DNA of 64,000 nt, from positions 10,830-74,829 of IMG/VR virus record IMGVR_UViG_3300025078_000002, one strand, 5' to 3'. The notes beneath the pieces are model-generated. The model made no database searches, was not told the origin of the DNA, and worked only from the letters and a program-made list of their open reading frames with translations. A program made the position numbers and the translations under genes. Each line of letters starts with the position of its first letter. The first letter of the stretch is position 1. The DNA is from a virus (lineage: Duplodnaviria > Caudoviricetes). Shown here piece by piece: positions 1 to 16,097 of this stretch.

Positions 1-20
1 GTTATAGAAGGAATATTATA

Positions 21-723: not shown

Positions 724-724
724 A

Positions 725-1140: not shown

Positions 1141-1142
1141 AA

Positions 1143-1596: not shown

Positions 1597-1598
1597 AA

Positions 1599-1841
1599 AT
1601 GGAAAAGTATAGTTCATATAAGAGCGGTTTAAAAATAGGAGACTACGTTCATTACGAATACAATTGTATTTTTGCTTCTTTTGTTGAGAGAAGTTTGATT
1701 TTAGATAGAAAGCATCTTTTTACAAAAGAGACTAGATGGGGAGAACGAAGTTTTTTTGAATATTCTGTATATAACAATGGGAACGTAAAAAAAATAAGAA
1801 CACAAGATATGAGAATTATAAATCGTGAAAGGACAAGCTAA
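1599..1841 (+). CDS. Small hypothetical protein, possible KOW/SH3-like barrel
   Basis: LKIGDYVHY motif. Confidence 0.55.
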   Translation: MEKYSSYKSGLKIGDYVHYEYNCIFASFVERSLILDRKHLFTKETRWGERSFFEYSVYNNGNVKKIRTQDMRIINRERTS

Positions 1842-1842
1842 A

Positions 1843-2832
1843 ATGAGAATTGCAATAACTGGTGAAAAAGGTTTTATCGCTAGCAACTTATCAAATAAAA
1901 TTAATAAATTTAGTCATGAATTTGTATCGTTAGATGAAAGCAAATATTCAGAAGGCTATGAAACTACTGAGAGTGGTGAAGTATGTGTGTATAGTAATAG
2001 CATCGAAAAATGGTCACAGCTTCTTTCAGACTTAGATGTTGATGTTGTTATACATAATGCTGCTGTTGTAGGAACTGATGTTGTTGCGTTAAACCCGGAG
2101 CATGCAATATCAACTAATGTGTTAGGAACACACATTATAACTGAGGCAGCTAATAATACGAATACAAAGATTGTGTATATAGGGACAACAGTTATATATG
2201 ATACGTATCTTTATCAAGAAAATGAAATCTATGAGGACAGCACAATATATCCTAGAACAAATTATGCTGTTCAAAAATATGCTGGCGAAATGACTGTTAA
2301 GAATAATGCAAAAAACTGGTTAGTAGTTAGACCGTTATTTGCTTATGGTGGTGTAGGAGATATGAATTCACTTATATCAAAGTCATTATTTTGTATACAT
2401 AATAATATAAATAATATAGATATGTTTTTAAATCCTGAAAAGATAAAGGATTATATGCATGTTGAAGATTTTTGTAGTAGTGTTATGGATTTAATTGTAA
2501 ACGATATTAGTTATGAAGATTTCAACATTACAGCAGAGAATCCTTATAACACGTTAGAAATAGTTAGTTTAATTGAAGAAGTGACTAGTAGAAGTTTAGA
2601 GTCAGTTATTAAGTGGCACCCTGAAACTGATTACTTGGGAAACCATAGATTAAGTAACGATAAATTTCTAGACGTTATAGGGAAAAGTAGAACTAGAAGT
2701 CTTAAGGAAGGAATAAGACAATCTTGGGAGTCAATAAAAGAAATGGATAAATTTAATAAGTTTAATCCACTTAAACATTTAACAGAAGCAAAAGATAAAA
2801 ACATTGATTTGAAGATGTTTTTCCCTAAGTGA
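1843..2832 (+). CDS. NAD-dependent epimerase/dehydratase (extended SDR)
   Basis: MRIAITGEKGFIA Rossmann motif, VIHNAA, YxxxK (YAVQK), VVRP, KDYMHVEDF; start taken at ATG 1843 behind AAGGA. Confidence 0.9.
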   Translation: MRIAITGEKGFIASNLSNKINKFSHEFVSLDESKYSEGYETTESGEVCVYSNSIEKWSQLLSDLDVDVVIHNAAVVGTDVVALNPEHAISTNVLGTHIITEAANNTNTKIVYIGTTVIYDTYLYQENEIYEDSTIYPRTNYAVQKYAGEMTVKNNAKNWLVVRPLFAYGGVGDMNSLISKSLFCIHNNINNIDMFLNPEKIKDYMHVEDFCSSVMDLIVNDISYEDFNITAENPYNTLEIVSLIEEVTSRSLESVIKWHPETDYLGNHRLSNDKFLDVIGKSRTRSLKEGIRQSWESIKEMDKFNKFNPLKHLTEAKDKNIDLKMFFPK

Positions 2833-2867
2833 ATTAGACTCAACCTGTAAACTAATCGCATTGTTAG

Positions 2868-2891
2868 ATACTTACTCTTAAAGGAGTAAGT
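2868..2891 (+). promoter_or_regulatory. ATACTTA box plus hairpin sequestering the SD of the downstream endonuclease
   Basis: ACTTACTC (2870-2877) pairs with GAGTAAGT (2884-2891) over AAGGAG; ATACTTA at 2868-2874. Confidence 0.6.
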
Positions 2892-2892
2892 T

Positions 2893-3660
2893 ATGGTTAG
2901 AAAAAGTACACAAGTAACATTGATATGCACAAATTGTGCTTGCGAATATAAAAAACTTGCATCAAGAGCAGAAAAATCAAAGTTTTGTTCTAAGTTATGC
3001 AAAGATAAAAAGTCAATACAATATAAGATTGAAAAATGTGTTAGCTGTCAAGAGGAGTTTAAATCTAAAAGAGGAAAGAAATATTGTTCTAGAGACTGTT
3101 ATATCAAAGAGCACAAGCATGAAAGAATGGATTTGACTTGTGACTACTGCGGCGATGTTTATCAAAAACCTGTTGGTAAACCTACGAAATATTGTGGTAA
3201 GCAATGTCAGTATAAGGCTCAAAGCAGCGGTTTACATGAAATACCTTCAAATGGTAGGTTAGGTTTTAGATATGATTTGCCGAGCAATTACTTTTTTAAG
3301 TCATCTTTAGAGGCAGACTATGCGAGATGGTGTGAAGCTACAAAAAAACCTTATGTTTATGAGCATAAAACATTTACAGTTCAATATGATGGAAGAGACA
3401 AGCAGTATACACCGGACTTTTATCATCCCGATGAGGATAGATATGTAGAGTTAAAAGCAATAAGAAGAGATAGGAAGTTTAATTCTAATCTTCTAGCTGC
3501 AGATATTTTAAAGCAGCAAGGGCTTAATATCGATGTGTTGTTAATGCATGAATTTTATAAAATAATAAAACAAAGTGGTCATTATTGGACAGTTGACAAT
3601 ATAGAAAACAAAAATTATCATGGAACAAGAAGACTTATATATCTTAAGAAAACACAGTAA
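2893..3660 (+). CDS. Free-standing PD-(D/E)xK endonuclease with N-terminal Cys-rich zinc-binding repeats (putative homing endonuclease)
   Basis: Repeated CxxC...YCSxxC units, then FKSSLEADYAR, YEHKTF, YTPDFY...YVELK. Confidence 0.75.
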   Translation: MVRKSTQVTLICTNCACEYKKLASRAEKSKFCSKLCKDKKSIQYKIEKCVSCQEEFKSKRGKKYCSRDCYIKEHKHERMDLTCDYCGDVYQKPVGKPTKYCGKQCQYKAQSSGLHEIPSNGRLGFRYDLPSNYFFKSSLEADYARWCEATKKPYVYEHKTFTVQYDGRDKQYTPDFYHPDEDRYVELKAIRRDRKFNSNLLAADILKQQGLNIDVLLMHEFYKIIKQSGHYWTVDNIENKNYHGTRRLIYLKKTQ

Positions 3661-4831
3661 AGGATTCGCGGCGTTAACTATAGTTTTGTTGGCTGCAGTC
3701 TTATCTATACTGTCATACATAGTAATACAATACGGAAGGATTTCTCTTAATGTTGTTGAAGAAAAACAAAGTTTAGATTCGTGTAGCGTGGGAGTAGGAA
3801 GAAGTATTATCAGCACAAACGATATTGAGAGTATTTGTTCTAGTGGTTTTTTGAATAGCTGTAGTGGTTTTTTGAACATGCCTGTGCCGAACATGAGTTG
3901 TGTTGACGAAGGATTAGAGTGTGATGGTGTAGGTATATGTGAAAGAGTTTTTACTATATCATCTACGTACAATCCTGGTCGTGGAGAAGTTTCCAAGGAT
4001 GTTGTAGTTAAAGTCAAGGAAGAAGAGCATGATGTGAGTATTGTAGACGCTGCTGTAATAATGTTGCTTGATTTTAGTGGTTCTATGAATGGAAATAGAA
4101 TTACACAGTTAAAAGACACAGTAAGGTCATTTATAGATTCTGATTATAATCTAAGTTACTCTGTTATTCTTTATAATAGCGACATTATAACAACATCAAA
4201 TATTGGAAAAGGTCAGCAACACAAGCAATCTATACACACTATAATTAACAGCAATAATCCTGGCGGTGGGACAAATTTTGTAAAGCCTTTGAACGAAGCA
4301 TTAAATCAAATACAAACTAGCAATTACGAAGTATACTACATACTTTTGATAAGTGACGGCTCACCAAACGAAGGTATAGACTCTTCGCAAAACTTTGTTC
4401 AAAATAACGTATTAAGCTTGAACAATGATGCATGTTTATTTACTACATCACAAAATCCTTGTATTACAGTATATACTTTGGGTGTTGACAATGCAAACCA
4501 GAGTGCTTTGCAAAGTATAAGTGGAAATACTCTTAGTCAAAATCCAGAAGAGTATAGTTATGCAGTCAATGCTAATCAAGTGCAATTAGCATTTCAAGCT
4601 ATTATAGAAGAGATAATGTGTAGAATAGGACCGGTTTTAGCTGAGTTACCTATTAACGTATTTAATGGTTTAGACTTGTTAGATGAAAACATTGATTATG
4701 TATATAATGAAGATACAAAAGTGTTTAAGTTTTATGATGTTGATCCATTTTATATCTGTACTGAAATGTTGAATGATAGTGCACAATTAACTTTAAGATG
4801 GGGAGACGTGAATTTAAATGTTAGCGAGTAA
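3620..4831 (+). CDS. VWA-domain protein with TadG/pseudopilin-like N-terminal membrane anchor
   Basis: KG|FAALTIVLLAAVLSIL hydrophobic helix; MIDAS DFSGS, GGGTNF, ISDG. Confidence 0.75.
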   Translation: MEQEDLYILRKHSKGFAALTIVLLAAVLSILSYIVIQYGRISLNVVEEKQSLDSCSVGVGRSIISTNDIESICSSGFLNSCSGFLNMPVPNMSCVDEGLECDGVGICERVFTISSTYNPGRGEVSKDVVVKVKEEEHDVSIVDAAVIMLLDFSGSMNGNRITQLKDTVRSFIDSDYNLSYSVILYNSDIITTSNIGKGQQHKQSIHTIINSNNPGGGTNFVKPLNEALNQIQTSNYEVYYILLISDGSPNEGIDSSQNFVQNNVLSLNNDACLFTTSQNPCITVYTLGVDNANQSALQSISGNTLSQNPEEYSYAVNANQVQLAFQAIIEEIMCRIGPVLAELPINVFNGLDLLDENIDYVYNEDTKVFKFYDVDPFYICTEMLNDSAQLTLRWGDVNLNVSE

Positions 4832-5057
4832 TGAAAACAAACAAGAAGAGATACGATTTGTATCACAGTTAAACAAAGGTGATATTATCAATGTATTTTA
4901 TCACGGAATGTGTATTAAAGAAAACTGCTTAATTGTAGAGACTATTCAAGATCACTACTTTGTTAACGGGTTGATTGTTTACCTGAATGGTTTACAAAAA
5001 GAAACTATTGATTTAGAGAATAATGACGGATTGTGGGTTACTAAGGCTGAAGTTTAG
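4818..5057 (+). CDS. Small hypothetical protein, possible KOW/SH3-like barrel
   Basis: LNKGDIINV motif. Confidence 0.55.
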   Translation: MLASNENKQEEIRFVSQLNKGDIINVFYHGMCIKENCLIVETIQDHYFVNGLIVYLNGLQKETIDLENNDGLWVTKAEV

Positions 5058-5146
5058 CCTATTCCATGCTTTGATGCATTCTTTAAATAATTGTATGCTC
5101 TTGGTAATTTTTTCTTAAGATTTTCACCATCAGAATAATATTCTAA
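5054..5146 (-). pseudogene. Orphan 3' gene fragment (LEYYSDGENLKKKLPRAYNYLKNASKHGIG*)
   Basis: 30-codon open stretch with no start, directly after the stop of the 5160-7925 gene; protein-like composition. Confidence 0.3.
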
Positions 5147-5159
5147 TCATATCTGGATT

Positions 5160-7925
5160 TTAAGACAGAATTAAAGAAATGTATTTTTTAATTAGCGTCT
5201 CATTTGATTCTTGCGGATCTTGCGAGTTTTGTTTTTGTAGAAGTAGATGTCTAGTCTCACTAATTAATTTAAGTATAGATCCTTTACCAAACATTTTTTC
5301 TATATAATCTATTACAATTTTAATACCTTCGTCAGGTAAATATAAATTGGCGTCAGGTGCAAGTGTTACAGCATAATTGACGCTTCGATGTATGCCCTTA
5401 GCAATTTTAAGAACTTGCCGCTGACTCATCCCACTAAAAAACAATGATAGCAGACTAGAATTATTTGCAACCCGTTCAAATAAATCGTTGTCACCTTCTG
5501 TATAATGTATTCTACCTAGTTCTAAACTATTCATGTGAGCTTCTGGTATTGTTTTTAGCAGAGCAATAGTCTCAAGATATTGTTCTACACCTTTCGAAGA
5601 TCTTAACAAAAGCATTAAAAGATCATTAAAATGTTTTTTGCTGTTTGGTTTGATATCAATATAACTAAAACAAGCTTCACATAAAGAGATGAGTGTCTGA
5701 AATGGTAGCTTTATTTCATAACTAATCCATCTTAAATACATTTGGAGATTGCTAATATCTGGAGGAATATCACCTGAAATTATTCCTGAAACTAATGCTT
5801 CAGCGTATTCTTTGTTCTTTGTTTCAACTTTTCTATTATTTTTAAGTATTAATCGGGTTTCTGCAGGCGTTTGTGATTGCTTGAGTTCATCAATTAAAGG
5901 ACTCCAATTGTTTGCAGTGTCAAGCTTTTGATTAATAAATTGGTGGTATTTCTGGTTTGTAATCTGCCTTTTAATGTTTTCATCTCTAATGTCTAATAAA
6001 TTTTGTTCAACACCCTGTCTAGCTTTTGTGCCTAATCTATCGATGTCTTCAAAAATTATATCAATTATTTTATTTAAAAGATCAATTCTTACACAGCTTA
6101 TTATTTCATTCTGGAATAAGGTAAAAACACCACGAGTCATATTGTCAATAGATCCTGCAATTTGTGCTGAAGAAATCGTATCAAGCTCTTCAAACAGAAA
6201 CTGCTGAATTTCAGGTAATTCTGTAAAGTATTTTCTTTCCCAAGGAAGCTTGCAAATTGCTGTTTTATAGTCTTTGTTTTTTGTCGGAAAGTAAAAAGTA
6301 AGCATTTTTATTAAAACATCAAGTATATCTTGGCCAGTAAGATTATCTAAGCGACTTCGATATCTTGCTAATTGAGCAACTTGATACAATTCTACGTTCA
6401 TCATTAAACGACTATTGTCAAGACTGTTTAACTTATTTAGAGACTTTCTAGAAAATAACATATCATTTACAGATAAGTGGCCGCCATATTGTATGTTACG
6501 AAAAACTAACATACCATAGCTGACTTTGTCTGCATTTTCTATGTAAATATCAATAAACCTTTCGAAATCTTTTTTTGTAACACTTTGCTTGTTTATTGGA
6601 GAAGTTATTACATCTAAAAATCTTGGAAAATAATAATTAACGTCATTGTCTGTGAAATAGTTTATTTTTTTACAAAGTTCAGTTATTAAGTTTAAGCATT
6701 CTAAGTGAATATTTTCTATGTTGTTTTGGTCAACTTTAAAGGCTTGTAATGGATTACCACCTGTGCCAACAGCTTTATTTATTTTGTTTTTTGTATTTGA
6801 AAATAAAACGTGGTTAATAAACATACTTTCTATTTTTAAGTTATCATTAACAACTAAGTCATAAACCTTTTGTATTGTTTCGTATGTTAGCTCAGGAGAG
6901 TCTGCAACTTTATTGATTTCATTGCACCAATAAAGTGTAGGCAAAAGTCCTTCTACACTTTGTAGTTGATCTTGTTTAAAGTCTTCTTCGTCAACATCGT
7001 TTTCTTGCGCAATATCATTTAGCGTTTCAAAGTCTATGTCTAGTGCTAGCTTTTGGTCTGGAAAAAAACTCGAAACATTTGAATGCCATTCTACTTCTTT
7101 ACCTACAACTCTACCTAATTCTACAACTTTTGCTTTTCTTTGAGGATTGTAAACAACGCAAACAGGTCCGTCATGGTCACCTCTAAATATAATACCGTCT
7201 ATGACAGAAGTTAAATACTTGGGTGTATAATTACCCATGACGTATTTAGTAAAAGAAAAAGCAGAAGATGAAGTTAGATTTTTATTGTTAGGATCGTCCA
7301 CTAAATAACTAGTCCCATTTATTCGTTGTGTTAATGGAGTGCAATATTGTTTTAAGTCTTCTTTTGTTTTCGCAAATAATTCGTCTTTTGCAAGAGAAGA
7401 AAACTTTTCATCAAACAACTTTTCTATCTGGTCTTCTAGCTTCCATTTATCACCGTGAATTTGTTTAGCCAAATCTTCAAAAAATATAATATAATTGCTA
7501 ATGTCAACTTCAAATTTAAAACATATATCCCCATACAAATGAACAATAGAAGGGTTAAAATCGTAACATGTATATAATCCTGGGCCGTACATATCTCCGT
7601 GGCCAGGTGTAAACCCAGTTCCCACTGTATATGGGTCTGATAGCAGTTCTGTAATTCCTTGAAACTCTATATCGCTTTTACTTTGCTTGGTTACACCACT
7701 CATGGCTTTATCATAAGTAACTCTATTAATAATGTTTCTAGCACGATCTTTGACTTTTCTTGGCTTGCTAGGCTTAAAAGGTTTTTCTGTATCTTTTACA
7801 TAAGACGAGTAATCTTTAAACTTTTTTGCACCTGTTAAGTGATAAACTGAAAGCTTGTTTCCTCTTAGCTCTATTCCTTTATTTTCTTTAATAAGAAAAT
7901 TTTCTTTTAAACTGTACTTTGTCAT
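5160..7925 (-). CDS. Large leader-bearing protein with N-terminal PARP/ADP-ribosyltransferase-like domain
   Basis: YHLT...GDMYGPGLYTC...YG (cf. PARP GxMFGxGIYF); paralog of 52106-54919; start moved to MTKYSLKENFLIKEN. Confidence 0.6.
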   Translation of the reverse strand: MTKYSLKENFLIKENKGIELRGNKLSVYHLTGAKKFKDYSSYVKDTEKPFKPSKPRKVKDRARNIINRVTYDKAMSGVTKQSKSDIEFQGITELLSDPYTVGTGFTPGHGDMYGPGLYTCYDFNPSIVHLYGDICFKFEVDISNYIIFFEDLAKQIHGDKWKLEDQIEKLFDEKFSSLAKDELFAKTKEDLKQYCTPLTQRINGTSYLVDDPNNKNLTSSSAFSFTKYVMGNYTPKYLTSVIDGIIFRGDHDGPVCVVYNPQRKAKVVELGRVVGKEVEWHSNVSSFFPDQKLALDIDFETLNDIAQENDVDEEDFKQDQLQSVEGLLPTLYWCNEINKVADSPELTYETIQKVYDLVVNDNLKIESMFINHVLFSNTKNKINKAVGTGGNPLQAFKVDQNNIENIHLECLNLITELCKKINYFTDNDVNYYFPRFLDVITSPINKQSVTKKDFERFIDIYIENADKVSYGMLVFRNIQYGGHLSVNDMLFSRKSLNKLNSLDNSRLMMNVELYQVAQLARYRSRLDNLTGQDILDVLIKMLTFYFPTKNKDYKTAICKLPWERKYFTELPEIQQFLFEELDTISSAQIAGSIDNMTRGVFTLFQNEIISCVRIDLLNKIIDIIFEDIDRLGTKARQGVEQNLLDIRDENIKRQITNQKYHQFINQKLDTANNWSPLIDELKQSQTPAETRLILKNNRKVETKNKEYAEALVSGIISGDIPPDISNLQMYLRWISYEIKLPFQTLISLCEACFSYIDIKPNSKKHFNDLLMLLLRSSKGVEQYLETIALLKTIPEAHMNSLELGRIHYTEGDNDLFERVANNSSLLSLFFSGMSQRQVLKIAKGIHRSVNYAVTLAPDANLYLPDEGIKIVIDYIEKMFGKGSILKLISETRHLLLQKQNSQDPQESNETLIKKYISLILS

Positions 7926-7949
7926 TATAAGCCTTGTTATATCTTTTAT

Positions 7950-7979
7950 GTGTAAATATAAATATAATGTTGTTATAAT
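7950..7979 (+). promoter_or_regulatory. Putative promoter GTGTAA-N18-TATAAT for dnaE
   Basis: Exact motif, repeated at several intergenic sites in the window. Confidence 0.65.
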
Positions 7980-8005
7980 AAATAAAAACAAGAAAGGTAT
8001 ATAAT

Positions 8006-8923
8006 TTGTCTATTGATTTAATAACTCCACCAGACAGGTTTGTTTCTCTTCATTCTCACTCAACTTTTAGCACTTTTGATGGATTAGGTTACCCATCAGA
8101 TCATATAGACTTCGTACTTTCTGAATCACAAGGTATGGATGCCTGGGCGTTAACAGATCACGGTAATGGTAACGGTCTTGCTCACGCACACTCGCACGCT
8201 GTCAAAATGCAAAAGGCTGGGAAAAAGTTTAGACAAATCTACGGAGTCGAATTCTATTTTGTTCCCTCACTAGATCAATGGACTAATGACTACGCAGCTC
8301 ATAAACAAGCAATTAAAGATGCTAAAACAGCAGCAGCTGCTGAAAAGAAAAGTAAAGAAAAAATCATCATTGATGCTGATGATGAAAGCGGTGGTCTTGT
8401 TATAGAGGATGAAGATGAATCCAAAAAGATTGATATCCTTAAAGACGAATGGAAACGTCGCTATCACTTAGTCGTCACAGCAAGAAATAGAAAAGGCCTT
8501 AATAACCTATTCACTCTTGTAAAGAAGTCATATAAAGACGGCTTCTATAGATACCCACGCATTGACTTTAAAATGCTTAAAGAACACGGCGAAGGCTTAC
8601 ACGTAAATTCTGCATGTTTACACCCAGACACATCTTTACAGACGTCAGCTGGAAGTTTATCTATTAAAGAAGTTGTAGAAAGATTTAACAAAGGTGAAGA
8701 AATTCAAATTCTTTCTTACAATGAATATACTAGCAAAGCTGAGTTTAAAAAAATTATTTGGGGTGATAAAACACGAAAGAATGCTAAGCTATTAAGAATT
8801 AAAGACAAAGATGGGAATGAAATTAAACTTACTCCTGATCATCGTGTCCTTGTTAAGGTCAAAGGTTGGATTGATGCGAAAGATATTATAGCAGGAGACA
8901 AAATTATCAATATAAACCTCTAA
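8006..8923 (+). CDS. dnaE: DNA polymerase III alpha part 1 (PHP domain) fused to N-intein 1
   Basis: LHSHSTFSTFDG, ALTDHG, YGVEFY, HLVVTARN; extein ends VNSA before intein Cys1. Confidence 0.92.
   Translation: MSIDLITPPDRFVSLHSHSTFSTFDGLGYPSDHIDFVLSESQGMDAWALTDHGNGNGLAHAHSHAVKMQKAGKKFRQIYGVEFYFVPSLDQWTNDYAAHKQAIKDAKTAAAAEKKSKEKIIIDADDESGGLVIEDEDESKKIDILKDEWKRRYHLVVTARNRKGLNNLFTLVKKSYKDGFYRYPRIDFKMLKEHGEGLHVNSACLHPDTSLQTSAGSLSIKEVVERFNKGEEIQILSYNEYTSKAEFKKIIWGDKTRKNAKLLRIKDKDGNEIKLTPDHRVLVKVKGWIDAKDIIAGDKIININL
8615..8920 (+). mobile_element. Split intein 1, N-half (102 aa)
   Basis: CLHPDTSL block A, LTPDHRV block B, WIDAKDI..GD, then stop. Confidence 0.9.
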
Positions 8924-8951
8924 GACAATATACTTAGTATTGTCTAGGAGG
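8917..8951 (+). promoter_or_regulatory. SD-sequestering hairpin with ATACTTA in the loop
   Basis: AGACAATA (8923-30) pairs with TATTGTCT (8938-45), and CCTC with GAGG; ATACTTA at 8930-8936. Confidence 0.65.
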
Positions 8952-8959
8952 CAGTTATT

Positions 8960-9910
8960 ATGAAAACAAAAAAGATTAATATATGGAAAATTAGAGAAGA
9001 AATACTTTTTTCATACTACGAAAAAGAAGAAATACAAAGTTTTATTGATAAACTTTATTCTTTTTCGATGATTTACCAGATGATTTTACGAGACAATAAA
9101 AAATGCTTTAATGATTTAAACATATCATTACAGACTTTTTCAACACTTTTAAAAGATAAAATTGGCTTTATACTTCACCCAAATAATCAAAAAACTTCAA
9201 CAGCGTTTAGGAGCCAATTCAAATTTCCTAAAAATACTACAATGGAAGAAATTGAAAATTATTATTTGAAGTCTTCTTTAAAAGGTCAAAAAGGTACAGT
9301 AAAGTCGAGAAAAAAATCTGGGAAACCTTACAATGAAAAACAGACTTTAGACTTTTGGTTAAGCATTACAAACAACAAAGAAGAAGCAATACAAAGTTTA
9401 GAAAAGTATAAAAGATCTAATTCTCCTTTTTGTATTGAGTTTTGGACTAAGAAAGGATTAAGTGAAGAGAATGCAAATAAAATAATCTCTGAAAGAGCTG
9501 TCAAAGGTGCGATTAATGCTCTTAAAAAAACATCACAGCCTAAAACTGAAAAGCGAATTGAATCTTTACTCAAGAAAAATAACATTGAATATTCTACGCA
9601 ATATCGAATATCACTAGATAAAGATGAAACTGTGTATAATAAAAAGTGCTATGTATATGACTTTTATTTACCTACATTTAATTTAATTATTGAATGTCAC
9701 GGTCTTTATTGGCATGCTCATCCTTCGTTATACAACGAAAACTCTGTATTAAACTTTCCAAGTGGACAAGTAAAAGCAATAGACGTTTGGAATTCTGATT
9801 TGTATAAAATGAAAGTTGCAGAAAAAAGAAATTACCGCTATATGACTATATGGGAAAATGAAATTGACAATACAATTAGTTTAATTAGAGATCGTGTAAA
9901 TATTGATTGA
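8960..9910 (+). CDS. Vsr/DUF559-like homing endonuclease between the halves of intein 1
   Basis: KTEKRI...YDFYLPTFNLIIECHGLYWH...YMTIWENE. Confidence 0.8.
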   Translation: MKTKKINIWKIREEILFSYYEKEEIQSFIDKLYSFSMIYQMILRDNKKCFNDLNISLQTFSTLLKDKIGFILHPNNQKTSTAFRSQFKFPKNTTMEEIENYYLKSSLKGQKGTVKSRKKSGKPYNEKQTLDFWLSITNNKEEAIQSLEKYKRSNSPFCIEFWTKKGLSEENANKIISERAVKGAINALKKTSQPKTEKRIESLLKKNNIEYSTQYRISLDKDETVYNKKCYVYDFYLPTFNLIIECHGLYWHAHPSLYNENSVLNFPSGQVKAIDVWNSDLYKMKVAEKRNYRYMTIWENEIDNTISLIRDRVNID

Positions 9911-9940
9911 TTGTTTTAAAATATAAAAAAAGGAATAATT

Positions 9941-10069
9941 TTGAAAGAAATTCAAACAAAATATATTGAAGTTGATCTAATTGAAGAGATAGATGAAACT
10001 TCTGATGTTTATGATATCACTGTCGAAGATAATCATAATTTTTTTGCTAATAACATTTTAGTTCATAAC
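9941..10069 (+). mobile_element. Split intein 1, C-half (43 aa)
   Basis: Block F VYDITV, block G VHN followed by Cys+1. Confidence 0.9.
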
Positions 10070-11191
10070 TGTTTAGGCGGGATTTTTAGCAATAGAATAC
10101 TCCGCGGCGTTGCACATGATAAGTCACGTGACGAAATCCAAAAAGATCTTTTAAACCTTACAGACAGATTTACAGACGCAGTTGGCATTGAAAACTTCAA
10201 ACTAGAACTACAGTTCAATAAGCTAAACAAACAACACGTTGTTAATGACTACCTCATAGAACATCATAAACTAACTGGCATTCCTCTCATCTCAACAGCA
10301 GATTCTCATTACCCGAGCAACGATAAATGGCAAGCAAGAGAGCTATACAAGAAACTTGGCTGGCTCGGTAAGAAAGATAACTTAACTCTTCCAGCATTTG
10401 AAGATCTTAAATGTGAGCTGTATCCAAAAAATGCACAACAAATGTGGGATGAGTTCCTTGAAGGGTACAAAGAACACGACTTCTATAAAGGGAACGAGCA
10501 GCTCGTTAAAGAGTCAATAGAAAGAACACACGACATTGCCTGGAATGACTTTGAAGATACATGGATAGATGTAAGCGCAAAACTACCAACAATAACAATA
10601 CCTAACAAGACGCCCTTTAAACACCTATCAGACTTGGTTAAAAACGCTCTCGTTACTGAAGGGTTACATACTAATAAAGAGTACGTAGATAGAGCTAAAT
10701 ATGAATTGTCTGATATTAAGTATCTTGGACACGAAGCTTACTTTATTACAATGTATGAGATCTTTAAAAAAGCTGAAACAAAGACATTATTTGGAGCTGG
10801 AAGAGGCTCAGGTGCGGGGAGTTTAGTTAACTACTTGTTAGGCATTACACAACTCGATCCAATTCCTTATAACTTGCTTTGGAGTAGATTCTTAGGCAGA
10901 CATAGATGTCTAGACGAAGATACTTACGTTATATCTGAATATGGTAAAAAGAAGATTAAAGATGTTAGTGAAGGCGAAAAAGTACTAACGCATACAGGTC
11001 AGTATAGAAAAATTATTGATAAGGCTATAACACAACACGATATGGCTGTTGAAATAAAATTTAATGGTCGTAAAATTATTTGCTCACCTAATCATCGTTG
11101 GATTGTTAATCGTAATGGTAACGAAGTAGAAACAATGGCATGCCATTTACAAAAAGGTGACAAACTAATTCGATTAGCCAGAGATAAATAA
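9941..11191 (+). CDS. dnaE: C-intein 1 + DnaE part 2 + N-intein 2
   Basis: VYDITVEDNHNFFANNILVHN|CLGG; TADSHY; GAGRGSGAGSLVNYLLGITQLDP; ends with an intein N-half. Confidence 0.92.
   Translation: MKEIQTKYIEVDLIEEIDETSDVYDITVEDNHNFFANNILVHNCLGGIFSNRILRGVAHDKSRDEIQKDLLNLTDRFTDAVGIENFKLELQFNKLNKQHVVNDYLIEHHKLTGIPLISTADSHYPSNDKWQARELYKKLGWLGKKDNLTLPAFEDLKCELYPKNAQQMWDEFLEGYKEHDFYKGNEQLVKESIERTHDIAWNDFEDTWIDVSAKLPTITIPNKTPFKHLSDLVKNALVTEGLHTNKEYVDRAKYELSDIKYLGHEAYFITMYEIFKKAETKTLFGAGRGSGAGSLVNYLLGITQLDPIPYNLLWSRFLGRHRCLDEDTYVISEYGKKKIKDVSEGEKVLTHTGQYRKIIDKAITQHDMAVEIKFNGRKIICSPNHRWIVNRNGNEVETMACHLQKGDKLIRLARDK
10907..11188 (+). mobile_element. Split intein 2, N-half (94 aa)
   Basis: CLDEDTYV, CSPNHRW, LQKGD, then stop. 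Confidence 0.9.
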
Positions 11192-11200
11192 AGGAATAAA

Positions 11201-11341
11201 ATGAAAGACAATAATCTATACGAGATTGAGGAAATCAACTTTGTACATTACGATCAAGATATGATTGATATTGAAGTAGAAGGCGATCACACTTTCTACG
11301 TTTCAGAAGACCCCATGAATGAATTTATCTTGACACATAAT
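11201..11341 (+). mobile_element. Split intein 2, C-half (47 aa)
   Basis: DIEVEGDHTFY...THN followed by Thr+1. Confidence 0.88.
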
Positions 11342-11980
11342 ACAAGCTGGCCGGATATTGACACAGATGCTGGAGACCGAGATGAGCTGATCAACGCAGC
11401 AAAAGAGTTATATGGCGACGATGCTGTTATTCCAGTATCAAACTTTAACACGCTTAAGCTTAAATCACTTGTAAAAGACATTGCAAAGTTTTATGATATT
11501 CCATTTGACGAAGTCAATAAGGTAACTGGTCCTCTTCAAGATCAAGTTATGCAGAAAGCAATGGATAAAAATCAAGAAAAGTCTGTATTTGTTCTTAAGC
11601 ATGAAGACTGCATGAAATATTCACCAGAGTATAACGAATTTATGACAACATATCCAGAAGTTGCTGAACATGTAGATACTTTGTTTATGCAAAATAGAAG
11701 TTGTTTTACTAAAGATACACATATCTTGACTGATCGTGGTTATATGGACATTGAAGAACTTAATCCTGTGTCTGATGGAATTGTTTATATTGACAATGAA
11801 GGCAATCAAAAAGTTAATCACGACTATGAATTGCATTATATGGGTAAAAAAGAAGTGTTTGAAATTGAAACAGAATGTGGAAAAAAGATTAAACTTACTC
11901 CAGATCATGAAGTTATGACCCAAGATGGGTATAAAAAAGTATGTGAACTAAGTGAAAGTGATATATTGATTAAATTTTAA
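11201..11980 (+). CDS. dnaE: C-intein 2 + DnaE part 3 + N-intein 3
   Basis: IDIEVEGDHTF...THN|TSWPDIDTD (catalytic PDIDxD motif). Confidence 0.92.
   Translation: MKDNNLYEIEEINFVHYDQDMIDIEVEGDHTFYVSEDPMNEFILTHNTSWPDIDTDAGDRDELINAAKELYGDDAVIPVSNFNTLKLKSLVKDIAKFYDIPFDEVNKVTGPLQDQVMQKAMDKNQEKSVFVLKHEDCMKYSPEYNEFMTTYPEVAEHVDTLFMQNRSCFTKDTHILTDRGYMDIEELNPVSDGIVYIDNEGNQKVNHDYELHYMGKKEVFEIETECGKKIKLTPDHEVMTQDGYKKVCELSESDILIKF
11702..11977 (+). mobile_element. Split intein 3, N-half (92 aa)
   Basis: CFTKDTHILTDRG, LTPDHEV, GYKKVCEL, then stop. Confidence 0.9.
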
Positions 11981-11986
11981 CATTTG

Positions 11987-12018
11987 CACCGCTTGCATAT
12001 AGTTAATAGCAGGAGGTG
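11987..12018 (+). promoter_or_regulatory. SD-sequestering hairpin with ATAGTTA in the loop
   Basis: CACCGCTTGC pairs with GCAGGAGGTG (one mismatch, one GU) over AGGAGG; ATAGTTA at 11999-12005. Confidence 0.6.
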
Positions 12019-12026
12019 AAATTAAC

Positions 12027-13013
12027 ATGTTATGTAAAATTTGTAATAAAGAATATAAAAATCTTGGAAGACATGTAAGTGTTCATTATAAAAATGTAAA
12101 GTCTAAGTCAAAAAAAATGTTATATTTTCATGATATTTATAAAAACAAGTATGATATTGCTCGTGAGTATCTTGAAAGTAAAAAGTCTGCCAACCAAATA
12201 GCAAAAGAAGTCACACAACTATTTAATCTTTTTCCAGTTCAAAAAGGTGATATTTTAAACTTCTTAAAATATATGAAAGTTAAAAAAAGAACAACTTCTG
12301 AAGCTGGTAAAGAGTATTACAAAGAAAATCCTGTTTGGAATAAAGGTTTGACTAAATATGATCATGCAAGTATAGAGAAATATGCAGATAGTAGAACTGG
12401 AAAGAATAATCCAATATACTCACTTACTGAAAAAGAAAGAGAAGAAAAGATTTATTATTGGCGATTTAAGTCTGATGATGAACTCTTTGCAATAAGAGCT
12501 AAGATCGGAAAATCATTAAAGGAAGGTTATGCTTCAGGCAGAATAAAACATATATCTAAAACACATCCAGAAAAATTTAAAGAAATACACGCGAAAATGC
12601 TGTCTGGATATTTTGATGCATTAAATAATGGTACCATTAAAAGACAAAGTTACACATCTAGTTATGAAAAAAGAATAGCAAATATTCTAGAAGAGTTAGA
12701 CATAAGTTTTATACAGCAGAAGTCTTGTAATAAAAAATATAGGTACGACTTTTTCTTGAAAGACTTTAATCTTTATATTGAATTTAATGGTGACTACTGG
12801 CATGCTAATCCGAATCAGTTTAATGAAAATTATTATCATCCTCATAAAAAGATTTTAGCAAGAGAAATATGGGAGTATGATAATGCCAAGCGTGTAAATG
12901 TAATAAATAGTGGTTATAATTTTTTAACAATATGGGAATGTGACGTCAAAGAATTCAATAGACAGCACTTGAAGGAGTATATAATTGGAATTATTAAGAA
13001 TCAAAAGCATTAA
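12027..13013 (+). CDS. Vsr/DUF559-like homing endonuclease between the halves of intein 3
   Basis: N-terminal CKIC...H zinc finger, WNKG repeat, SSYEKRI...YDFFLKDFNLYIEFNGDYWH...TIWECD. Confidence 0.8.
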   Translation: MLCKICNKEYKNLGRHVSVHYKNVKSKSKKMLYFHDIYKNKYDIAREYLESKKSANQIAKEVTQLFNLFPVQKGDILNFLKYMKVKKRTTSEAGKEYYKENPVWNKGLTKYDHASIEKYADSRTGKNNPIYSLTEKEREEKIYYWRFKSDDELFAIRAKIGKSLKEGYASGRIKHISKTHPEKFKEIHAKMLSGYFDALNNGTIKRQSYTSSYEKRIANILEELDISFIQQKSCNKKYRYDFFLKDFNLYIEFNGDYWHANPNQFNENYYHPHKKILAREIWEYDNAKRVNVINSGYNFLTIWECDVKEFNRQHLKEYIIGIIKNQKH

Positions 13014-13122
13014 GAATACAAACACAATTCAACCCGTTTATGATATACATCATAATATTGATAATAAGAATTTTTATGATGAGCATCCCAATCTTATTGC
13101 AAACAATATTACAATATCAAAC
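12985..13122 (+). mobile_element. Split intein 3, C-half (46 aa)
   Basis: PVYDI...LIANNITISN followed by Cys+1; penultimate Ser instead of His. Confidence 0.85.
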
Positions 13123-14892
13123 TGTGGGCGTCACGCTGGGGGTGTTATTATAGCAGACGCAGACCTTCTTGAGCAATCGATGCCAATTGTTGGTGTTCGT
13201 GGAGAACTACAAACACCGTGGACTGAAGGTATGAACTTTAGGAATCTTGAAGACAACGGTTTTCTAAAGTTTGACTTCTTAGGTTTAACGCTTCTTAAAG
13301 ATGTAGAGAATTGCATTTATAGAATCCTAAGAAAAAGCGGAATGAAAAATCCTACATTCACAGATGCAAGAGCATTCTTTGATAAGCATTTAAACTGTAG
13401 GTTTGTCAAACAGGATGACCCTAAAGTTTGGGAACATGTGTATAAGGATGGTCACTTCGTTGGCATATTCCAGTTCACAAATCAGGGTGCTAGACAGTTT
13501 TCAATGGATGCATCGCCTGTAAGTATACAGGAGTTAGCAACAATTACTGCGATATATCGCCCTGGACCGCTTAAAGCAAATGTGCACAAGAAATATGTTA
13601 AGGCAAAAAACAATGCTAATGATATTGTGTACGATCATCCTATCATAGAAGAAGTACTTGGATATACTTACGGCTACTTTTGCTTTCAAGAGCAATTCAT
13701 GTTGATGGCACAAAAGCTTGCTGGGTTTTCACCGGGTGAGAGTGATAAGTTACGAAAGACGCTTGTAAAGAAATCACTAGATACTTTGCATTCTAAAGGA
13801 TCAGAAAAGGCAATTGCTAGAGAGAAGTTTATTAAAGGTGCCAAAGAGCTCAATGACATTCCTGAGAGTATTTCTTCGAAGCTCTGGCAAGACATAGAAG
13901 GTTTCGCAGTTTATGGCTTCAATCTTTCCCATGCAGTTGCATATGCTATTGGGTCGTATTATGCGGCATGGCTACATACACATCACGAGACTGAGTGGAT
14001 GGCAGCAATATTGCAATCTGAGAATGGTAATCCTAAAGGAATGTCAAAAGCCATTTCAGAGATTAAGTCATTTGGATATGAAATTGCTGCAATAGATATA
14101 AACCACTCTGAAGCTGAATGGGAATATTCTGATGTGTTGAAAGCTTTTGTGCCGCCGTTGACATCGCTTAAAGGAGTAGGTGATAAAGCTGTTGAAGAAG
14201 TATTTGAAAATAGACCATATAAAAACTTATCAGATCTATTTTACAATGAAGTAGGAGAATGGAGACATTCCAAGCTGAACAAAACAGCTTTTTCGTCATT
14301 AGCAAAGATGGAAGCATTTAAGTCTCTCCAGGAGTTTCAAGATGATGTATTAGATAATCATAAGCAAATGTATGATTTAATCTTGGATAACTATAATCTA
14401 CTCAAGAAAGGTAGATATGGAATGACAAAAACTGCCGTAAAAAGAGCGTTAAAGAATGATGAAGAGATTGTGCCTATTGTTGATGAGTTGATTGCGAAGT
14501 ATAAGGTTGTTAGTGATTGGAGTAGGAATGAAAAGATTAAGAACTATTTTGAACTCAGTAATGACGCAAGTGACGACCTATTGTTTCCACCTAGATTATT
14601 GAACAAGTTAAAACAGAAAGAAATCTCCAGTGTGTTTGATATACCTTCTGGAGATCGTGGTATTGGATGGTTTACAGTGACTGAGGTTATTCGTAAGACG
14701 ACTAAGAACGGGAAGGCGTTTATGAGGTGGAAGTGTGTAGACTCAGACAATCGTAGCGGATGGTTACGAGTTTGGGGGTCATTAGATGGCGAGGTTGAGT
14801 TTAGTACGTGGCTTGCTGATGTGAAGAATGATGCTGGATGGGGAATGTCTACGAATCTAGGTAAGCTTAAAAAGATTAACGCTTTTGATTAA
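12985..14892 (+). CDS. dnaE: C-intein 3 + DnaE part 4 (fingers/HhH/OB)
   Basis: VYDI...ISN|CGRHAGGVI; KFDFLGL; GIFQF; YRPGP; FQEQFM; YGFNLSHA. Confidence 0.93.
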   Translation: MELLRIKSIKNTNTIQPVYDIHHNIDNKNFYDEHPNLIANNITISNCGRHAGGVIIADADLLEQSMPIVGVRGELQTPWTEGMNFRNLEDNGFLKFDFLGLTLLKDVENCIYRILRKSGMKNPTFTDARAFFDKHLNCRFVKQDDPKVWEHVYKDGHFVGIFQFTNQGARQFSMDASPVSIQELATITAIYRPGPLKANVHKKYVKAKNNANDIVYDHPIIEEVLGYTYGYFCFQEQFMLMAQKLAGFSPGESDKLRKTLVKKSLDTLHSKGSEKAIAREKFIKGAKELNDIPESISSKLWQDIEGFAVYGFNLSHAVAYAIGSYYAAWLHTHHETEWMAAILQSENGNPKGMSKAISEIKSFGYEIAAIDINHSEAEWEYSDVLKAFVPPLTSLKGVGDKAVEEVFENRPYKNLSDLFYNEVGEWRHSKLNKTAFSSLAKMEAFKSLQEFQDDVLDNHKQMYDLILDNYNLLKKGRYGMTKTAVKRALKNDEEIVPIVDELIAKYKVVSDWSRNEKIKNYFELSNDASDDLLFPPRLLNKLKQKEISSVFDIPSGDRGIGWFTVTEVIRKTTKNGKAFMRWKCVDSDNRSGWLRVWGSLDGEVEFSTWLADVKNDAGWGMSTNLGKLKKINAFD

Positions 14893-14904
14893 CAATATTT
14901 ACAA

Positions 14905-15471
14905 CTAAAATCTGTAAGCATCAATGTCTTGTTGCGACATTAAACCAGACTGCTGCAAAAACATTTTAAAAGCTTCGCTTTCGTTTGATATACCGACAAA
15001 AAGTTTAGAAGGACCACCAGCTACACGACAAGCCTTAAAAAATTCTTCTTCAAGCATATCAATTTGATTCTTCATGTCAGCACGAAACTTGTCTTGAAGT
15101 TGTCTGTTTTCAAACGCCTCGAGAATAATGTCAATCGAACCAGCTACGGTAACACCTACGCTAATTGTAGTTAAAGCTGAACCTGCAATTAATGCAGGTG
15201 TCCCTACAGCTAACATTGCAGCCATACCAATTACAAAAGCAGAAACTCCAGGATAGTATTCTTGTATCTCTTGTCTTCCACTTGCACTTCTCATTGCGTT
15301 AACAGCTTCTTCCCAGCTGTTTACTTTTTGCCTTAAGATATTTGACTTTTCATGACCGCTAACACCTGCTAGCGCGTCAAAGTGATGCATATCACCCATC
15401 ATTTCATTTAATCGTGATTCTTTGATTACTTGTCTGATCAGCGATCGTAAACGTCTTTCTGTAATTTTCAT
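14905..15471 (-). CDS. Leader-bearing hypothetical protein with a hydrophobic hairpin
   Basis: MKITERRLRSLIRQVIKES leader; VIGMAAMLAVGTPALIAGSALTTISVGVTV segment. Confidence 0.75.
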   Translation of the reverse strand: MKITERRLRSLIRQVIKESRLNEMMGDMHHFDALAGVSGHEKSNILRQKVNSWEEAVNAMRSASGRQEIQEYYPGVSAFVIGMAAMLAVGTPALIAGSALTTISVGVTVAGSIDIILEAFENRQLQDKFRADMKNQIDMLEEEFFKACRVAGGPSKLFVGISNESEAFKMFLQQSGLMSQQDIDAYRF

Positions 15472-15495
15472 ATTTGTTTTCTCCTAAAATATGTT
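15446..15495. repeat. 50-bp perfect direct repeat, copy 1 (leader 5' end plus RBS)
   Basis: cgtaaacgtctttctgtaattttcatatttgttttctcctaaaatatgtt is identical at 16072-16121. Confidence 0.9.
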
Positions 15496-15526
15496 CTTAA
15501 ATATGTTCTTAAATATGATAAAATTA

Positions 15527-15606
15527 TTGCTGATGTGAAGAATGATGCAGGATGGGGTATGTCGTCAAGCCTTGCTAAACTTAAAAAGATTAATGCGTTT
15601 GACTAA
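15527..15606 (+). pseudogene. Diverged duplicate of the last 80 nt of dnaE
   Basis: ADVKNDAGWGMSSSLAKLKKINAFD* versus ADVKNDAGWGMSTNLGKLKKINAFD* at 14813-14892. Confidence 0.9.
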
Positions 15607-15620
15607 GAGTTAAATTTAAA

Positions 15621-16097
15621 CTACATAATATATTTGTTAGTATCTGGGTCAATTTCCATAGGAGGATTTTGAACACTAAATACTCCTCTTTCCATAGCTA
15701 TTTGGTCTATTTTGCTAATAATCGACTTAAGCTGATCTATACTAAATTTATCACCATAATTATATCTCTCAATTGCATCACGATCTAAACCATATTGCTC
15801 AATTCTTGGATCTTCTGCAGACCGTCTGTCTGAATAAAAATTGTTGTTTACTTCAATCATATCGATGCCTTCTTTTTGACATACTTCTCTATATTTGAGC
15901 ATTTTTAACATATATTTTCTATCAGTATTGCCAGAGTATGATGTATCTGCCCATTCTCTATTTAACATTCTTCCCATATCTTTAATATAAGACTTTACAT
16001 ATTCTTCAACTTCTTCAACTTTAGGATCGTGGTTATCTATACTTTCTTTTATAACACTTCTAATAATTGAGCGTAAACGTCTTTCTGTAATTTTCAT
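15621..16097 (-). CDS. Leader-bearing hypothetical protein
   Basis: MKITERRLRSIIRSVIKES leader; body unrelated to 14905-15471. Confidence 0.75.
   Translation of the reverse strand: MKITERRLRSIIRSVIKESIDNHDPKVEEVEEYVKSYIKDMGRMLNREWADTSYSGNTDRKYMLKMLKYREVCQKEGIDMIEVNNNFYSDRRSAEDPRIEQYGLDRDAIERYNYGDKFSIDQLKSIISKIDQIAMERGVFSVQNPPMEIDPDTNKYIM

Follow-up and report, generated by a model that had tools for sequence, protein, structure and literature searches.

I propose that the DnaE of an uncultured large phage, whose gene is split by three inteins, is rebuilt through three trans-splicing events into one polymerase, a reading to which I would give a probability of about 85%. The gene lies at 8006-14892 on the + strand of the window, by which I mean the whole 64,000-nt stretch of DNA that was analysed, taken from a metagenome assembly record estimated to be about 30% complete. 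As judged by its sequence, the enzyme is very probably assembled post-translationally from four pieces. If so, a single polymerase would depend on three independent trans-splicing events, and to judge by relatives on as many as five. The natural split inteins that have been well studied are each known to mend a single break. The components are all of known kinds and the fractured-gene arrangement is already known, here taken unusually far; it shows the extent to which a core gene can be broken up by selfish elements and survive.

Layout of the four pieces

The gene consists of four ORFs on the same strand, whose polypeptides probably come from a single co-directional block of genes:

8006-8923, + strand: piece A, 203 aa of extein and IntN1 (102 aa)
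9941-11191, + strand: piece B, IntC1 (43 aa), 279 aa of extein and IntN2 (94 aa)
11201-11980, + strand: piece C, IntC2 (47 aa), 120 aa of extein and IntN3 (92 aa)
12985-14892, + strand: piece D, IntC3 (46 aa) and 589 aa of extein

The extein parts sum to 203+279+120+589 = 1191 aa, and once the inteins are removed their junctions read VNSA/CLGG, RFLGRHR/TSWPDID and QNRS/CGRHAGG (the slash marking the intein site). The four ORFs, junction residues, piece sizes and sum had all been put forward in a sequence-only reading of this DNA and were reproduced. That reading also described the junctions as a stop followed by a start, which holds for junction 2, a bare one; junctions 1 and 3 each have an endonuclease ORF inside, which its text passes over. 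The extein segments are:

8006-8614, + strand: DnaE extein segment 1, 203 aa, PHP domain (Pfam PHP, 6.9e-22), ending in VNSA; matches Pol III alpha chains
10070-10906, + strand: DnaE extein segment 2, 279 aa, from CLGG to RFLGRHR; Pfam DNA_pol3_alpha; ends at about E. coli residue 396
11342-11701, + strand: DnaE extein segment 3, 120 aa, from TSWPDIDTD (two catalytic Asp) to QNRS; Pfam DNA_pol3_alpha; starts at about E. coli residue 397
13123-14892, + strand: DnaE extein segment 4, 589 aa, starting with CGRHAGG; KFDFLGL (third catalytic Asp), fingers, HhH

Segment 4 aligns to E. coli residues 509-890 (E 6e-40) and carries Pfam DNA_pol3_finger (1.2e-35) and HHH_6. The PHP domain, the palm with its three catalytic Asp, the fingers and HhH follow one another in DnaE order (Pfam; mapping on 2hnh and 2hpi), the four pieces are collinear on these solved Pol III alpha chains, and Pfam PHP, DNA_pol3_alpha, DNA_pol3_finger, HHH_6 and Intein_splicing/Hint are each found in the expected piece. 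The intein sites fall at about E. coli DnaE residues 133, 396/397 and 507/508. At all three junctions the host part is fused in frame to IntN, and IntC to the next host part, on the same strand; no frameshift or internal stop interrupts any extein or intein half, and neither catalytic motif, PDIDTD or KFDFLGL, is damaged. Because two of the palm Asp are in piece C and the third is in piece D, no single piece can be active.

RNA splicing and stop-codon recoding were tried as explanations and rejected: Rfam gave no intron family in 7500-15500, where a sub-threshold snoRNA match is put down to chance, and all three IntN pieces end in TAA in a window that reads well under table 11. A scan of the block found promoter-like sites no more often than by chance and, on the + strand, no terminator within it; this outcome is compatible with one transcription unit, not evidence for one.

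The inteins and the genes between their halves

The junctions are occupied by the following features:

8615-8923, + strand: IntN1, 102 aa and TAA stop; Cys1, TPDH block B; Pfam Intein_splicing
8918-8950, + strand: RNA hairpin 1, pairing the Shine-Dalgarno of endonuclease gene 1; -14.3 kcal/mol, z -4.29
8960-9910, + strand: endonuclease gene 1, a free-standing Vsr-like (EDxHD) homing endonuclease, 316 aa, between the halves of intein 1
9941-10069, + strand: IntC1, 43 aa, C-terminal VHN; TTG start after AAAGGAA; Pfam Intein_splicing positions 119-155
10907-11191, + strand: IntN2, 94 aa and TAA stop; Cys1, SPNH block B
11201-11341, + strand: IntC2, 47 aa, C-terminal THN; ATG start, no endonuclease gene
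11702-11980, + strand: IntN3, 92 aa and TAA stop; Cys1, TPDH block B
11978-12032, + strand: RNA hairpin 2, pairing the Shine-Dalgarno and start of endonuclease gene 2; -13.6 kcal/mol, z -2.48
12027-13013, + strand: endonuclease gene 2, a free-standing Vsr-like (EDxHD) homing endonuclease, 328 aa, between the halves of intein 3
12985-13122, + strand: IntC3, 46 aa, C-terminal ISN, with the terminal Asn present and Ser for the penultimate His

The class 1 residues are C1, TPDH, VHN and +1 C in intein 1, C1, SPNH (the same as in gp41-1), THN and +1 T in intein 2, and C1, TPDH, ISN and +1 C in intein 3. The penultimate His of block G, present in inteins 1 and 2, is Ser in intein 3 of the window and also in L085, L171 and L174; active inteins do not all have this His. 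IntC3 gave no Pfam hit of its own, while Pfam Intein_splicing/Hint matches every other intein half. Among solved structures, IntN1 matches the NrdJ-1 intein (8ubs, E 6.5e-11), IntN2 the gp41-1 intein (6riz, E 8.5e-4) and IntN3 DnaE/DnaB inteins (7qil, E 5.5e-7, and 2keq, the two within E 5e-7 to 3e-6). Orthologs are 87% identical for IntN1 (L005; dN/dS 0.08), 81-90% for IntN2 (L074, L080, L085, L168, L174, L175), 86-89% for IntN3 (L085, L171, L174) and 80-96% for IntC3, whose start is at the same position, as TTG or GTG. The start and Shine-Dalgarno of IntC1 are kept in L005, L174, L168 and L175.

The spacer between the IntN stop and the endonuclease gene is 36 nt at junction 1 and 46 nt at junction 3, where the 3' end of the endonuclease gene also overlaps the start of IntC3 by 29 nt. 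None of 200 shuffles was as good as hairpin 1, and the sequence of hairpin 2 is conserved in L085, L171 and L174. Orthologs of endonuclease gene 1 are 74-78% identical (L005, L174, L168) and those of gene 2 76-84% (L085, L171, L174), with dN/dS 0.13 in both cases. Single-sequence searches of the PDB found no match for gene 1 and a non-significant one for gene 2 (Vsr, E 0.7). A nuclease-domain profile of 25 sequences (A1) matches I-Bth0305I (3r3p, 1.6e-5) and Vsr (1cw0, 3.3e-4), and the Vsr-type nuclease core has invariant columns D41, E52, G55, W58, H59, P62, W82 and E104. The presence of intein and endonuclease varies among close relatives, and intein plus endonuclease show lower synonymous divergence than the flanking exteins, which may hint indirectly at homing by cleavage of the intein-free allele.

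Junction 2 is no more than TAA, 9 nt and ATG, with IntN2 and IntC2 in the same frame. Its spacer has a conserved AAAGG ribosome-binding site and ATG, and L174 has the same layout. Elsewhere the allele is contiguous (L081) or split by an endonuclease gene (L019, L033, L074), so that contiguous, endonuclease-split and endonuclease-less split states, the stages of the gene-breaking model of 2009, are all documented for one intein. An AlphaFold2 single-sequence model of intein 2 read through its TAA was poor (pLDDT 39).

Complex prediction hints that IntN3 and IntC3 pair with each other, the two together scoring 0.60 against 0.01 for the best control, with at least 96% contact agreement between runs and a partner pLDDT of at least 68. 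The mark they passed was also passed by 51/78 solved complexes and 2/108 mismatched pairs; a score of 0.60 or less was given to only 5 of the 78 solved complexes and to all 4 passing mismatches. Since structures of split-intein complexes have already been solved, the predictor may have passed this pair by having learnt them.

Relatives and rival readings

In the closest relatives dnaE is a single unbroken gene, the four segments of the window abutting to the base within a 1191-aa ORF (L006/L007/L008); segments 1-3 are 93-97% identical to these intein-free relatives. The window is not unique. Its relatives have from zero to three of five dnaE intein sites filled, and one contig has all five; the sites assort freely, and the one labelled site e is empty in the window. 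Multi-fractured dnaE genes are many in public metagenomes, in relatives down to about 44% identity. Double-ended pieces such as B and C are met again in assemblies from JGI, ENA and Logan (P0001-P0004, P0038-P0040 and others at a greater distance), and L174 has the same combination (sites a, c without an endonuclease gene, and d) at 86-96% protein identity. The sequence-only reading had given each downstream piece its own Shine-Dalgarno and start, and for each junction these, with the preceding stop, are retained in assemblies made independently (L005, L085, L168, L171, L174, L175).

Intein halves and exteins are under purifying selection: dN/dS is 0.06-0.16 in intein halves, 0.13 in endonucleases and 0.01-0.08 in exteins. 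Site 3 has a +1 Cys in the window and in 3/3 other intein-bearing alleles, and a +1 Ile, Val or Leu in 81/81 intein-free ones. At site 2 the +1 residue is Thr in all intein-bearing alleles and Thr, Val or Ala in the others. A nucleotide search of isolate phages gave a single 70-nt match, over IntC1, and in a protein search no isolate-phage DnaE exceeded about 30% identity to that of the window, with no cultured relative found. A short family-A polymerase-like ORF is also present in complete relatives, and the phage may therefore have a polymerase besides DnaE.

Might the intein halves be no more than non-covalent clasps, holding together a four-chain polymerase in which no peptide bonds are formed? 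Phage enzymes in fragments can come together with no splicing, as is reported of Aeh1 NrdA, broken by a homing endonuclease (PMC3045599), and the lack of the penultimate His in IntC3 may be counted for docking. However, purifying selection keeps all the residues that only the splicing chemistry needs (Cys1, the block B His, the terminal Asn and the +1 nucleophile), and the +1 Cys of site 3 is confined to intein-bearing alleles, which mere docking would not demand. I consider the clasp very unlikely, if the least so of the alternatives. Next to it, and about as unlikely, stands partial read-through of the TAA at junction 2, which would make B and C one chain with a cis mini-intein and leave two trans-splicing events. 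The shared frame and 9-nt distance in the window and L174, and the contiguous cis intein of L081, lend themselves to this view, but TAA is the usual stop of the window, no recoding signal is seen, and the ribosome-binding site and ATG in the spacer are conserved. In L029 this allele has its IntN and IntC in two different reading frames, from which it follows that a truly split state works for intein 2.

The stops could also be sequencing errors, above all the single in-frame TAA of intein 2, or the triple interruption as a whole a chimera of co-occurring strains with fewer inteins each: this is a metagenome assembly, relatives with none, one or two of the same inteins exist, and junction 2 is one stop codon away from a contiguous mini-intein. 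An artefact of assembly is nevertheless highly improbable. Each of ORFs B and C bears halves of two different inteins, and both recur in independent assemblies from JGI, ENA and Logan, L174 repeats the three-intein combination together with the TAA and its 9-nt spacer, and the strains differ at most synonymous sites (pS > 0.5), so that long identical stretches at which a chimera could be joined are few. Least credible of all is decay, in which selfish elements would have overrun dnaE and it would no longer yield a working polymerase, as three mobile insertions in one dnaE and the second polymerase-like ORF of complete relatives might suggest. Against decay are the low extein dN/dS, the unbroken frames, the intact catalytic motifs and the persistence of multi-fractured alleles across distant relatives.

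Trans-splicing by three split inteins, the claim of the sequence-only reading, is thus preferred; everything it predicts at the level of sequence was found, from Cys1, block B (T/S)xxH, the terminal Asn and +1 Cys/Thr/Cys to purifying selection and conserved junctions. On this proposal, three unrelated mini-inteins would have invaded dnaE at three conserved sites. Inteins 1 and 3 would then have been broken by free-standing Vsr-like endonuclease genes, each with its own stop, a regulatory hairpin and a start further downstream, and intein 2 would since have lost its endonuclease gene, leaving the stop, ribosome-binding site and start. Cognate IntN and IntC halves would pair, and protein trans-splicing at the three junctions would give the 1191-aa polymerase. 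What the sequences show is the anatomy with its exact boundaries, the intact catalytic residues, purifying selection and recurrence in other assemblies; that splicing takes place, how efficiently and in what order, and that the three pairs do not cross-react, is what I infer.

Known fractured genes and the question of orthogonality

The arrangement has clear precedents. Dassa, London, Stoddard, Schueler-Furman and Pietrokovski (2009) described fractured genes that include the GOS loci DnaE-1, DnaE-2 and DnaE-3, with DnaE hosts at three different insertion points and, at DnaE-1, the C-part of a further intein (PMC2677866). Those loci and the window share a host enzyme cut by a split intein whose halves flank a free-standing Vsr-like endonuclease gene on the same strand, a hairpin over the endonuclease ribosome-binding site, an endonuclease 3' end that overlaps the IntC start, and a phage-like, marine setting. 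In the window the in-frame IntN/IntC fusions are found at 3/3 junctions, and the endonuclease ORF, hairpin and short spacer at junctions 1 and 3. However, the loci of 2009 are short read assemblies with one complete split intein each, whereas the window has three in one complete gene, and its relatives have five freely assorting dnaE sites. Junction 2 resembles the gp41-7 locus, a fractured gene without an endonuclease (PMC2677866), in being a stop and start only, the state that the Dassa model predicts after endonuclease loss; it differs in its 9-nt, in-frame spacer and in that the same allele is also known contiguous and endonuclease-split.

The sequence-only reading knew of no such case. 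A high count of split inteins in one gene does appear to be unreported in the papers searched, among which a search for natural genes with several split inteins found nothing beyond Dassa 2009, but fractured DnaE at three sites, one locus with part of a second intein, was already in that paper.

The split DnaE intein of cyanobacteria (Ssp PCC6803, Npu) interrupts the same host protein, and there too the polymerase is rebuilt by trans-splicing. It is, however, only one intein, its insertion site is another, its halves are at unlinked loci, and the DnaE sites of the phage-like loci are not the one used in cyanobacteria (PMC2677866). IntN3 is a distant relative of Npu/Ssp-type inteins (best E about 1e-6), and the combination of same insertion point and close similarity that would mark a cyanobacterial DnaE allele is not found in the window inteins. 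I place the cyanobacterial site, EY/CFN, some four residues upstream of where the phage relatives have site e. The DnaE of Trichodesmium erythraeum, with two contiguous inteins and one split, is like the window in having several inteins in one dnaE; since only one of them is split, a single trans-splicing step is enough.

Three reactions on one enzyme would call for mutual orthogonality, and the sequences are consistent with it: pairwise identity among the three inteins is 23-37%, their nearest solved relatives differ (NrdJ-1, gp41-1 and DnaE/DnaB inteins), and their charge patterns are partly opposite. Pairs 1 and 2 have the same polarity (IntN +4; IntC -9 and -12), so charge alone would not keep IntC1 from IntN2 on ORF B. 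I lean, by a little, towards regarding the dnaE of this lineage as a natural test bed of orthogonal split inteins, in which five unrelated inteins assort freely, three cooperate here and all five may do so in one relative, and selection would favour in each pair efficient splicing without cross-reaction or self-cyclisation of the double-ended middle pieces. If this is true, the lineage would offer ready-made, co-evolved ligation sets, including the endonuclease-less pair split by 9 nt and a Ser1/Ser+1 pair in relatives.

The window points in any case to natural sets of split inteins coexisting in one cell, of the sort that engineers build by hand for multi-fragment ligation. Pinto et al. (2020) engineered a one-pot ligation of fragments with IntC/IntN ends by non-cross-reacting pairs (PMC7090010). 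That system is man-made, while the window set is natural and would act on one essential enzyme in an infected cell. Both join double-ended fragments, and inteins 1 and 2 of the window resemble NrdJ-1 and gp41-1.

A dnaE gene in pieces

Six ORFs, all in one direction, fill positions 8006-14892 of the window; four contain DnaE sequence and two lie in between.

Open reading frames of the split dnaE gene (IntN and IntC, N and C halves of inteins 1-3)
8006-8923, + strand: ORF A, extein of 203 aa, then IntN1 of 102 aa
8960-9910, + strand: endonuclease ORF 1, 316 aa, between the halves of intein 1
9941-11191, + strand: ORF B, IntC1 of 43 aa, extein of 279 aa, IntN2 of 94 aa
11201-11980, + strand: ORF C, IntC2 of 47 aa, extein of 120 aa, IntN3 of 92 aa
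12027-13013, + strand: endonuclease ORF 2, 328 aa, between the halves of intein 3
12985-14892, + strand: ORF D, IntC3 of 46 aa, then extein of 589 aa

The sequence-only reading had claimed four DnaE pieces with an extein total of 1191 aa, joined as VNSA/CLGG, RFLGRHR/TSWPDID and QNRS/CGRHAGG (the slash marks the joint). Locating the junctions by script reproduces both the joints and the arithmetic. It had also described the junctions as simple pairs of stop and start. This holds for intein 2, where TAA, AGGAATAAA and ATG succeed each other in the same frame throughout, but not for inteins 1 and 3, each of which holds an extra ORF that had been overlooked. The 3' end of endonuclease gene 2 overlaps the start of IntC3 by 29 nt.

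Pfam finds PHP in piece A, DNA_pol3_alpha from B through C into the beginning of D at consecutive profile positions, and DNA_pol3_finger and HHH_6 in D, and every extein is collinear with its match to solved Pol III alpha chains. By approximate E. coli equivalents, A reaches residue 133, B ends at 396, C starts at 397 and D starts at 508, so the first Asp of PDIDTD, the palm motif, lies five residues beyond intein 2. Piece D supplies the third catalytic Asp, in KFDFLGL. Judged by this alignment, no single piece contains the complete active site.

What did the gene look like without its inserts? With the last extein as query, IMG/VR gave 80 related loci, against which the 12 parts were compared by tblastn. 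There is no insertion in dnaE in 63 full-length loci. In the closest of the intein-free loci (L006-L008; 93-97% identity over extein segments 1-3), dnaE is a single ORF of 1191 aa with no stops, where each of the four segments runs into the next without a base gained or lost. Each of the three inserts has thus been added exactly, and the gene is otherwise ordinary.

Three inteins and two endonucleases

All intein halves except IntC3 match Pfam Intein_splicing or Hint. The inteins had been called three different ones, and their nearest solved relatives agree: NrdJ-1 for IntN1 (E 6.5e-11), gp41-1 for IntN2 (E 8.5e-4), and DnaE and DnaB inteins for IntN3 (E 5.5e-7). Pairwise identity is 27-36% between the IntN halves and 23-37% between the IntC halves. 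Cys1, the block B motif (T/S)xxH and the terminal Asn are present in all three, and the +1 residue is Cys for inteins 1 and 3 and Thr for intein 2. The last three residues of IntC3 are ISN, so a penultimate His is lacking.

Charge of the intein halves
Pair 1: IntN +4, IntC -9
Pair 2: IntN +4, IntC -12
Pair 3: IntN -9, IntC -1

The polarity of pair 3 is opposite to that of pairs 1 and 2, and since the latter two are alike, charge alone does not explain specificity. Complex prediction gave IntN3 with IntC3 a score of 0.60 (best control 0.01), with at least 96% contact agreement between runs and a partner pLDDT of at least 68. Of 78 solved complexes, 51 reached the mark applied, as did 2 of 108 mismatched pairs; a score of 0.60 or less occurred in only 5 of the 78 and in all 4 mismatches that passed. 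Complexes of this kind have already been solved, and the pass may therefore reflect memorisation; the prediction weakly supports the pairing of IntN3 with IntC3. I infer splicing, the order of the splicing events and the orthogonality of the three pairs.

In both intervening ORFs the C-terminal domain can be aligned with many phage ORFs, centred on the conserved core YDF...IIEFNGDYWHxNP...IWE. A profile built from that alignment finds I-Bth0305I (3r3p, E 1.6e-5) and Vsr (1cw0, E 3.3e-4). By this homology, the ORFs at 8960-9910 and 12027-13013 are Vsr-like homing endonucleases, the same family as in the fractured genes of Dassa et al. 2009 (PMC2677866). As in those genes, the ribosome-binding site of each is paired in a hairpin (-14.3 kcal/mol, z -4.3, before gene 1; -13.6 kcal/mol, z -2.5, before gene 2).

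From ocean metagenomes Dassa et al. 2009 described 26-27 fractured loci, with three DnaE loci whose insertion points differ, one of which, DnaE-1, has the C-part of a further intein as well (PMC2677866). The kind of system is thus known, and DnaE is a known host. Literature searches found no natural gene described as requiring several trans-splicing events. One-pot ligation by five orthogonal split inteins has been engineered (PMC7090010), but that set is man-made, while the set in the window is natural. The arrangement is recurrent and notable for its degree, all of its parts being of known kinds.

Five sites among relatives

Protein searches of JGI, ENA and Logan data with the two double-ended ORFs yielded counterparts of ORF C (P0001-P0004) at 86-89% identity and of ORF B (P0038-P0040) at 84-89%, with more ORF B clusters down to 44%. 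Judged by such counterparts, the multi-split dnaE of the window is not unique. Five insertion sites can be distinguished, and loci with no intein at any of them are also seen.

Insertion sites
Site a: following VNSA
Site b: in segment 2, around residue 247
Site c: ahead of TSWPDID
Site d: ahead of CGRH
Site e: YGFN(K/L)/SHAV, in segment 4

Combinations of occupied sites
a only: L005
c only: several loci
e only: L075-L078
a and c: L169, L175
b and c: L029
b and d: L171
c and d: L085
c and e: L074
a, c and d: the window
a, c and e: L168, a 237.5-kb contig
a, b, c and d, with the N half of e: L174, a 9.3-kb contig

L174 (ENA ERZ27275027 k141_681667, dnaE at 16-7619) has so many sites occupied in a single gene that six pieces are implied. 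Where its last dnaE piece would be expected, behind the site-e endonuclease gene, the contig instead has an unrelated ORF on the minus strand; it may be chimeric, or incomplete, with the last piece perhaps unlinked.

No two of the five intein types are more than 44% identical. The split intein of site e, absent from the window (L074 3312-4685; L075-L078; L168; L174 6382-6663), starts with Ser (SLLFNT...) and ends in ...LQSN, with Ser following. Its catalytic nucleophiles are cysteine-free, which puts it in a class sought by protein chemists.

Site c exists in three states. It is contiguous in L081 (9215-9637), within a 1365-aa ORF that reads KSPC-EFEE. A near-identical intein in L019 (2899-4275) has an endonuclease gene inserted and reads KSP-stop ... 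IEFEE. L029, the window and L174 have it split with no endonuclease gene. The three states of one allele correspond to steps of the gene-breaking model (PMC2677866), and L081 and L019 form a direct before/after pair for gene fracturing.

Maintenance and surroundings

Intein 1 with its own endonuclease recurs in L005, L168, L174 and L175, and intein 3 with its own in L085, L171 and L174. Stops, ribosome-binding sites and start positions (TTG for IntC1, TTG or GTG for IntC3) are kept in other assemblies amid many synonymous differences, and junction 2 of L174 has TAA, a 9-nt spacer and ATG, as in the window. Intein halves have a dN/dS of 0.06-0.16, the endonucleases one of 0.13 and exteins one of 0.01-0.08. 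Synonymous sites approach saturation, yet pN stays far below pS throughout.

Might the halves merely dock? The +1 residues argue otherwise. The window and all three other intein-bearing alleles have Cys at this position of site 3; the 81 intein-free alleles have Ile (69), Val (11) or Leu (1) there. For site 2, all intein-bearing alleles have Thr, and the others have Thr (41), Val (28) or Ala (2), L041 having been shifted out of the latter class because it carries the intein. A nucleophile confined to intein-bearing alleles is what splicing chemistry would demand; docking alone would make no such demand. RNA splicing in place of protein splicing was rejected, there being no Rfam intron family in the region. 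From these comparisons of alleles, the arrangement is judged real and maintained.

Besides DnaE, complete or near-complete relatives have a short ORF resembling family-A polymerases (354-403 aa; G001 78177-78821, G002 173741-174538, G003 46133-46741), and no family-B polymerase was found in them. DnaE may thus not be the sole polymerase, though such strong conservation speaks for its use.

Extein segment 4 (13123-14889), on the downstream side of intein 3, has just 84% identity to L006-L008, compared with 93-97% for 8006-11701. This drop suggests that recombination broke at the intein-3 site or close to it, perhaps through co-conversion of flanks during homing. The last 25 dnaE codons (14815-14892) are repeated about 640 nt downstream at 15529-15606 (94% over 35 nt, 89% over 27 nt), and the genes that follow the two copies (14905-15471 and 15621-16097, both - strand) encode proteins with a common N-terminus, MKITERRLRS... 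A cassette seems to have been inserted at the dnaE 3' end, bringing a replacement gene end. In L010, L011, L014, L085 (1243-2365) and L171, a second copy of the first 21 dnaE codons stands upstream of the gene. In L085 the copies flank a 311-aa zinc-finger ORF, suggesting another mobile insertion of endonuclease type at the 5' end.

The record holding the window is 74.8 kb, about 30% complete by CheckV's estimate; complete relatives are 235-285 kb, one with direct terminal repeats. Among isolate phages, the only nucleotide-level matches are to Klebsiella jumbo phage KP13-7 and to DNA polymerase genes of Campylobacter CP21-type phages, at 10003-10072, the end of the DNA encoding IntC1 (81-87% identity over 70 nt). 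G+C of the window is about 31%. Two proteins of about 930 aa (5160-7991 and 52106-54919) have no PHROG match, and a GroEL-like chaperonin gene is found at 40318-41955 (phrog_5725, E 1e-132).
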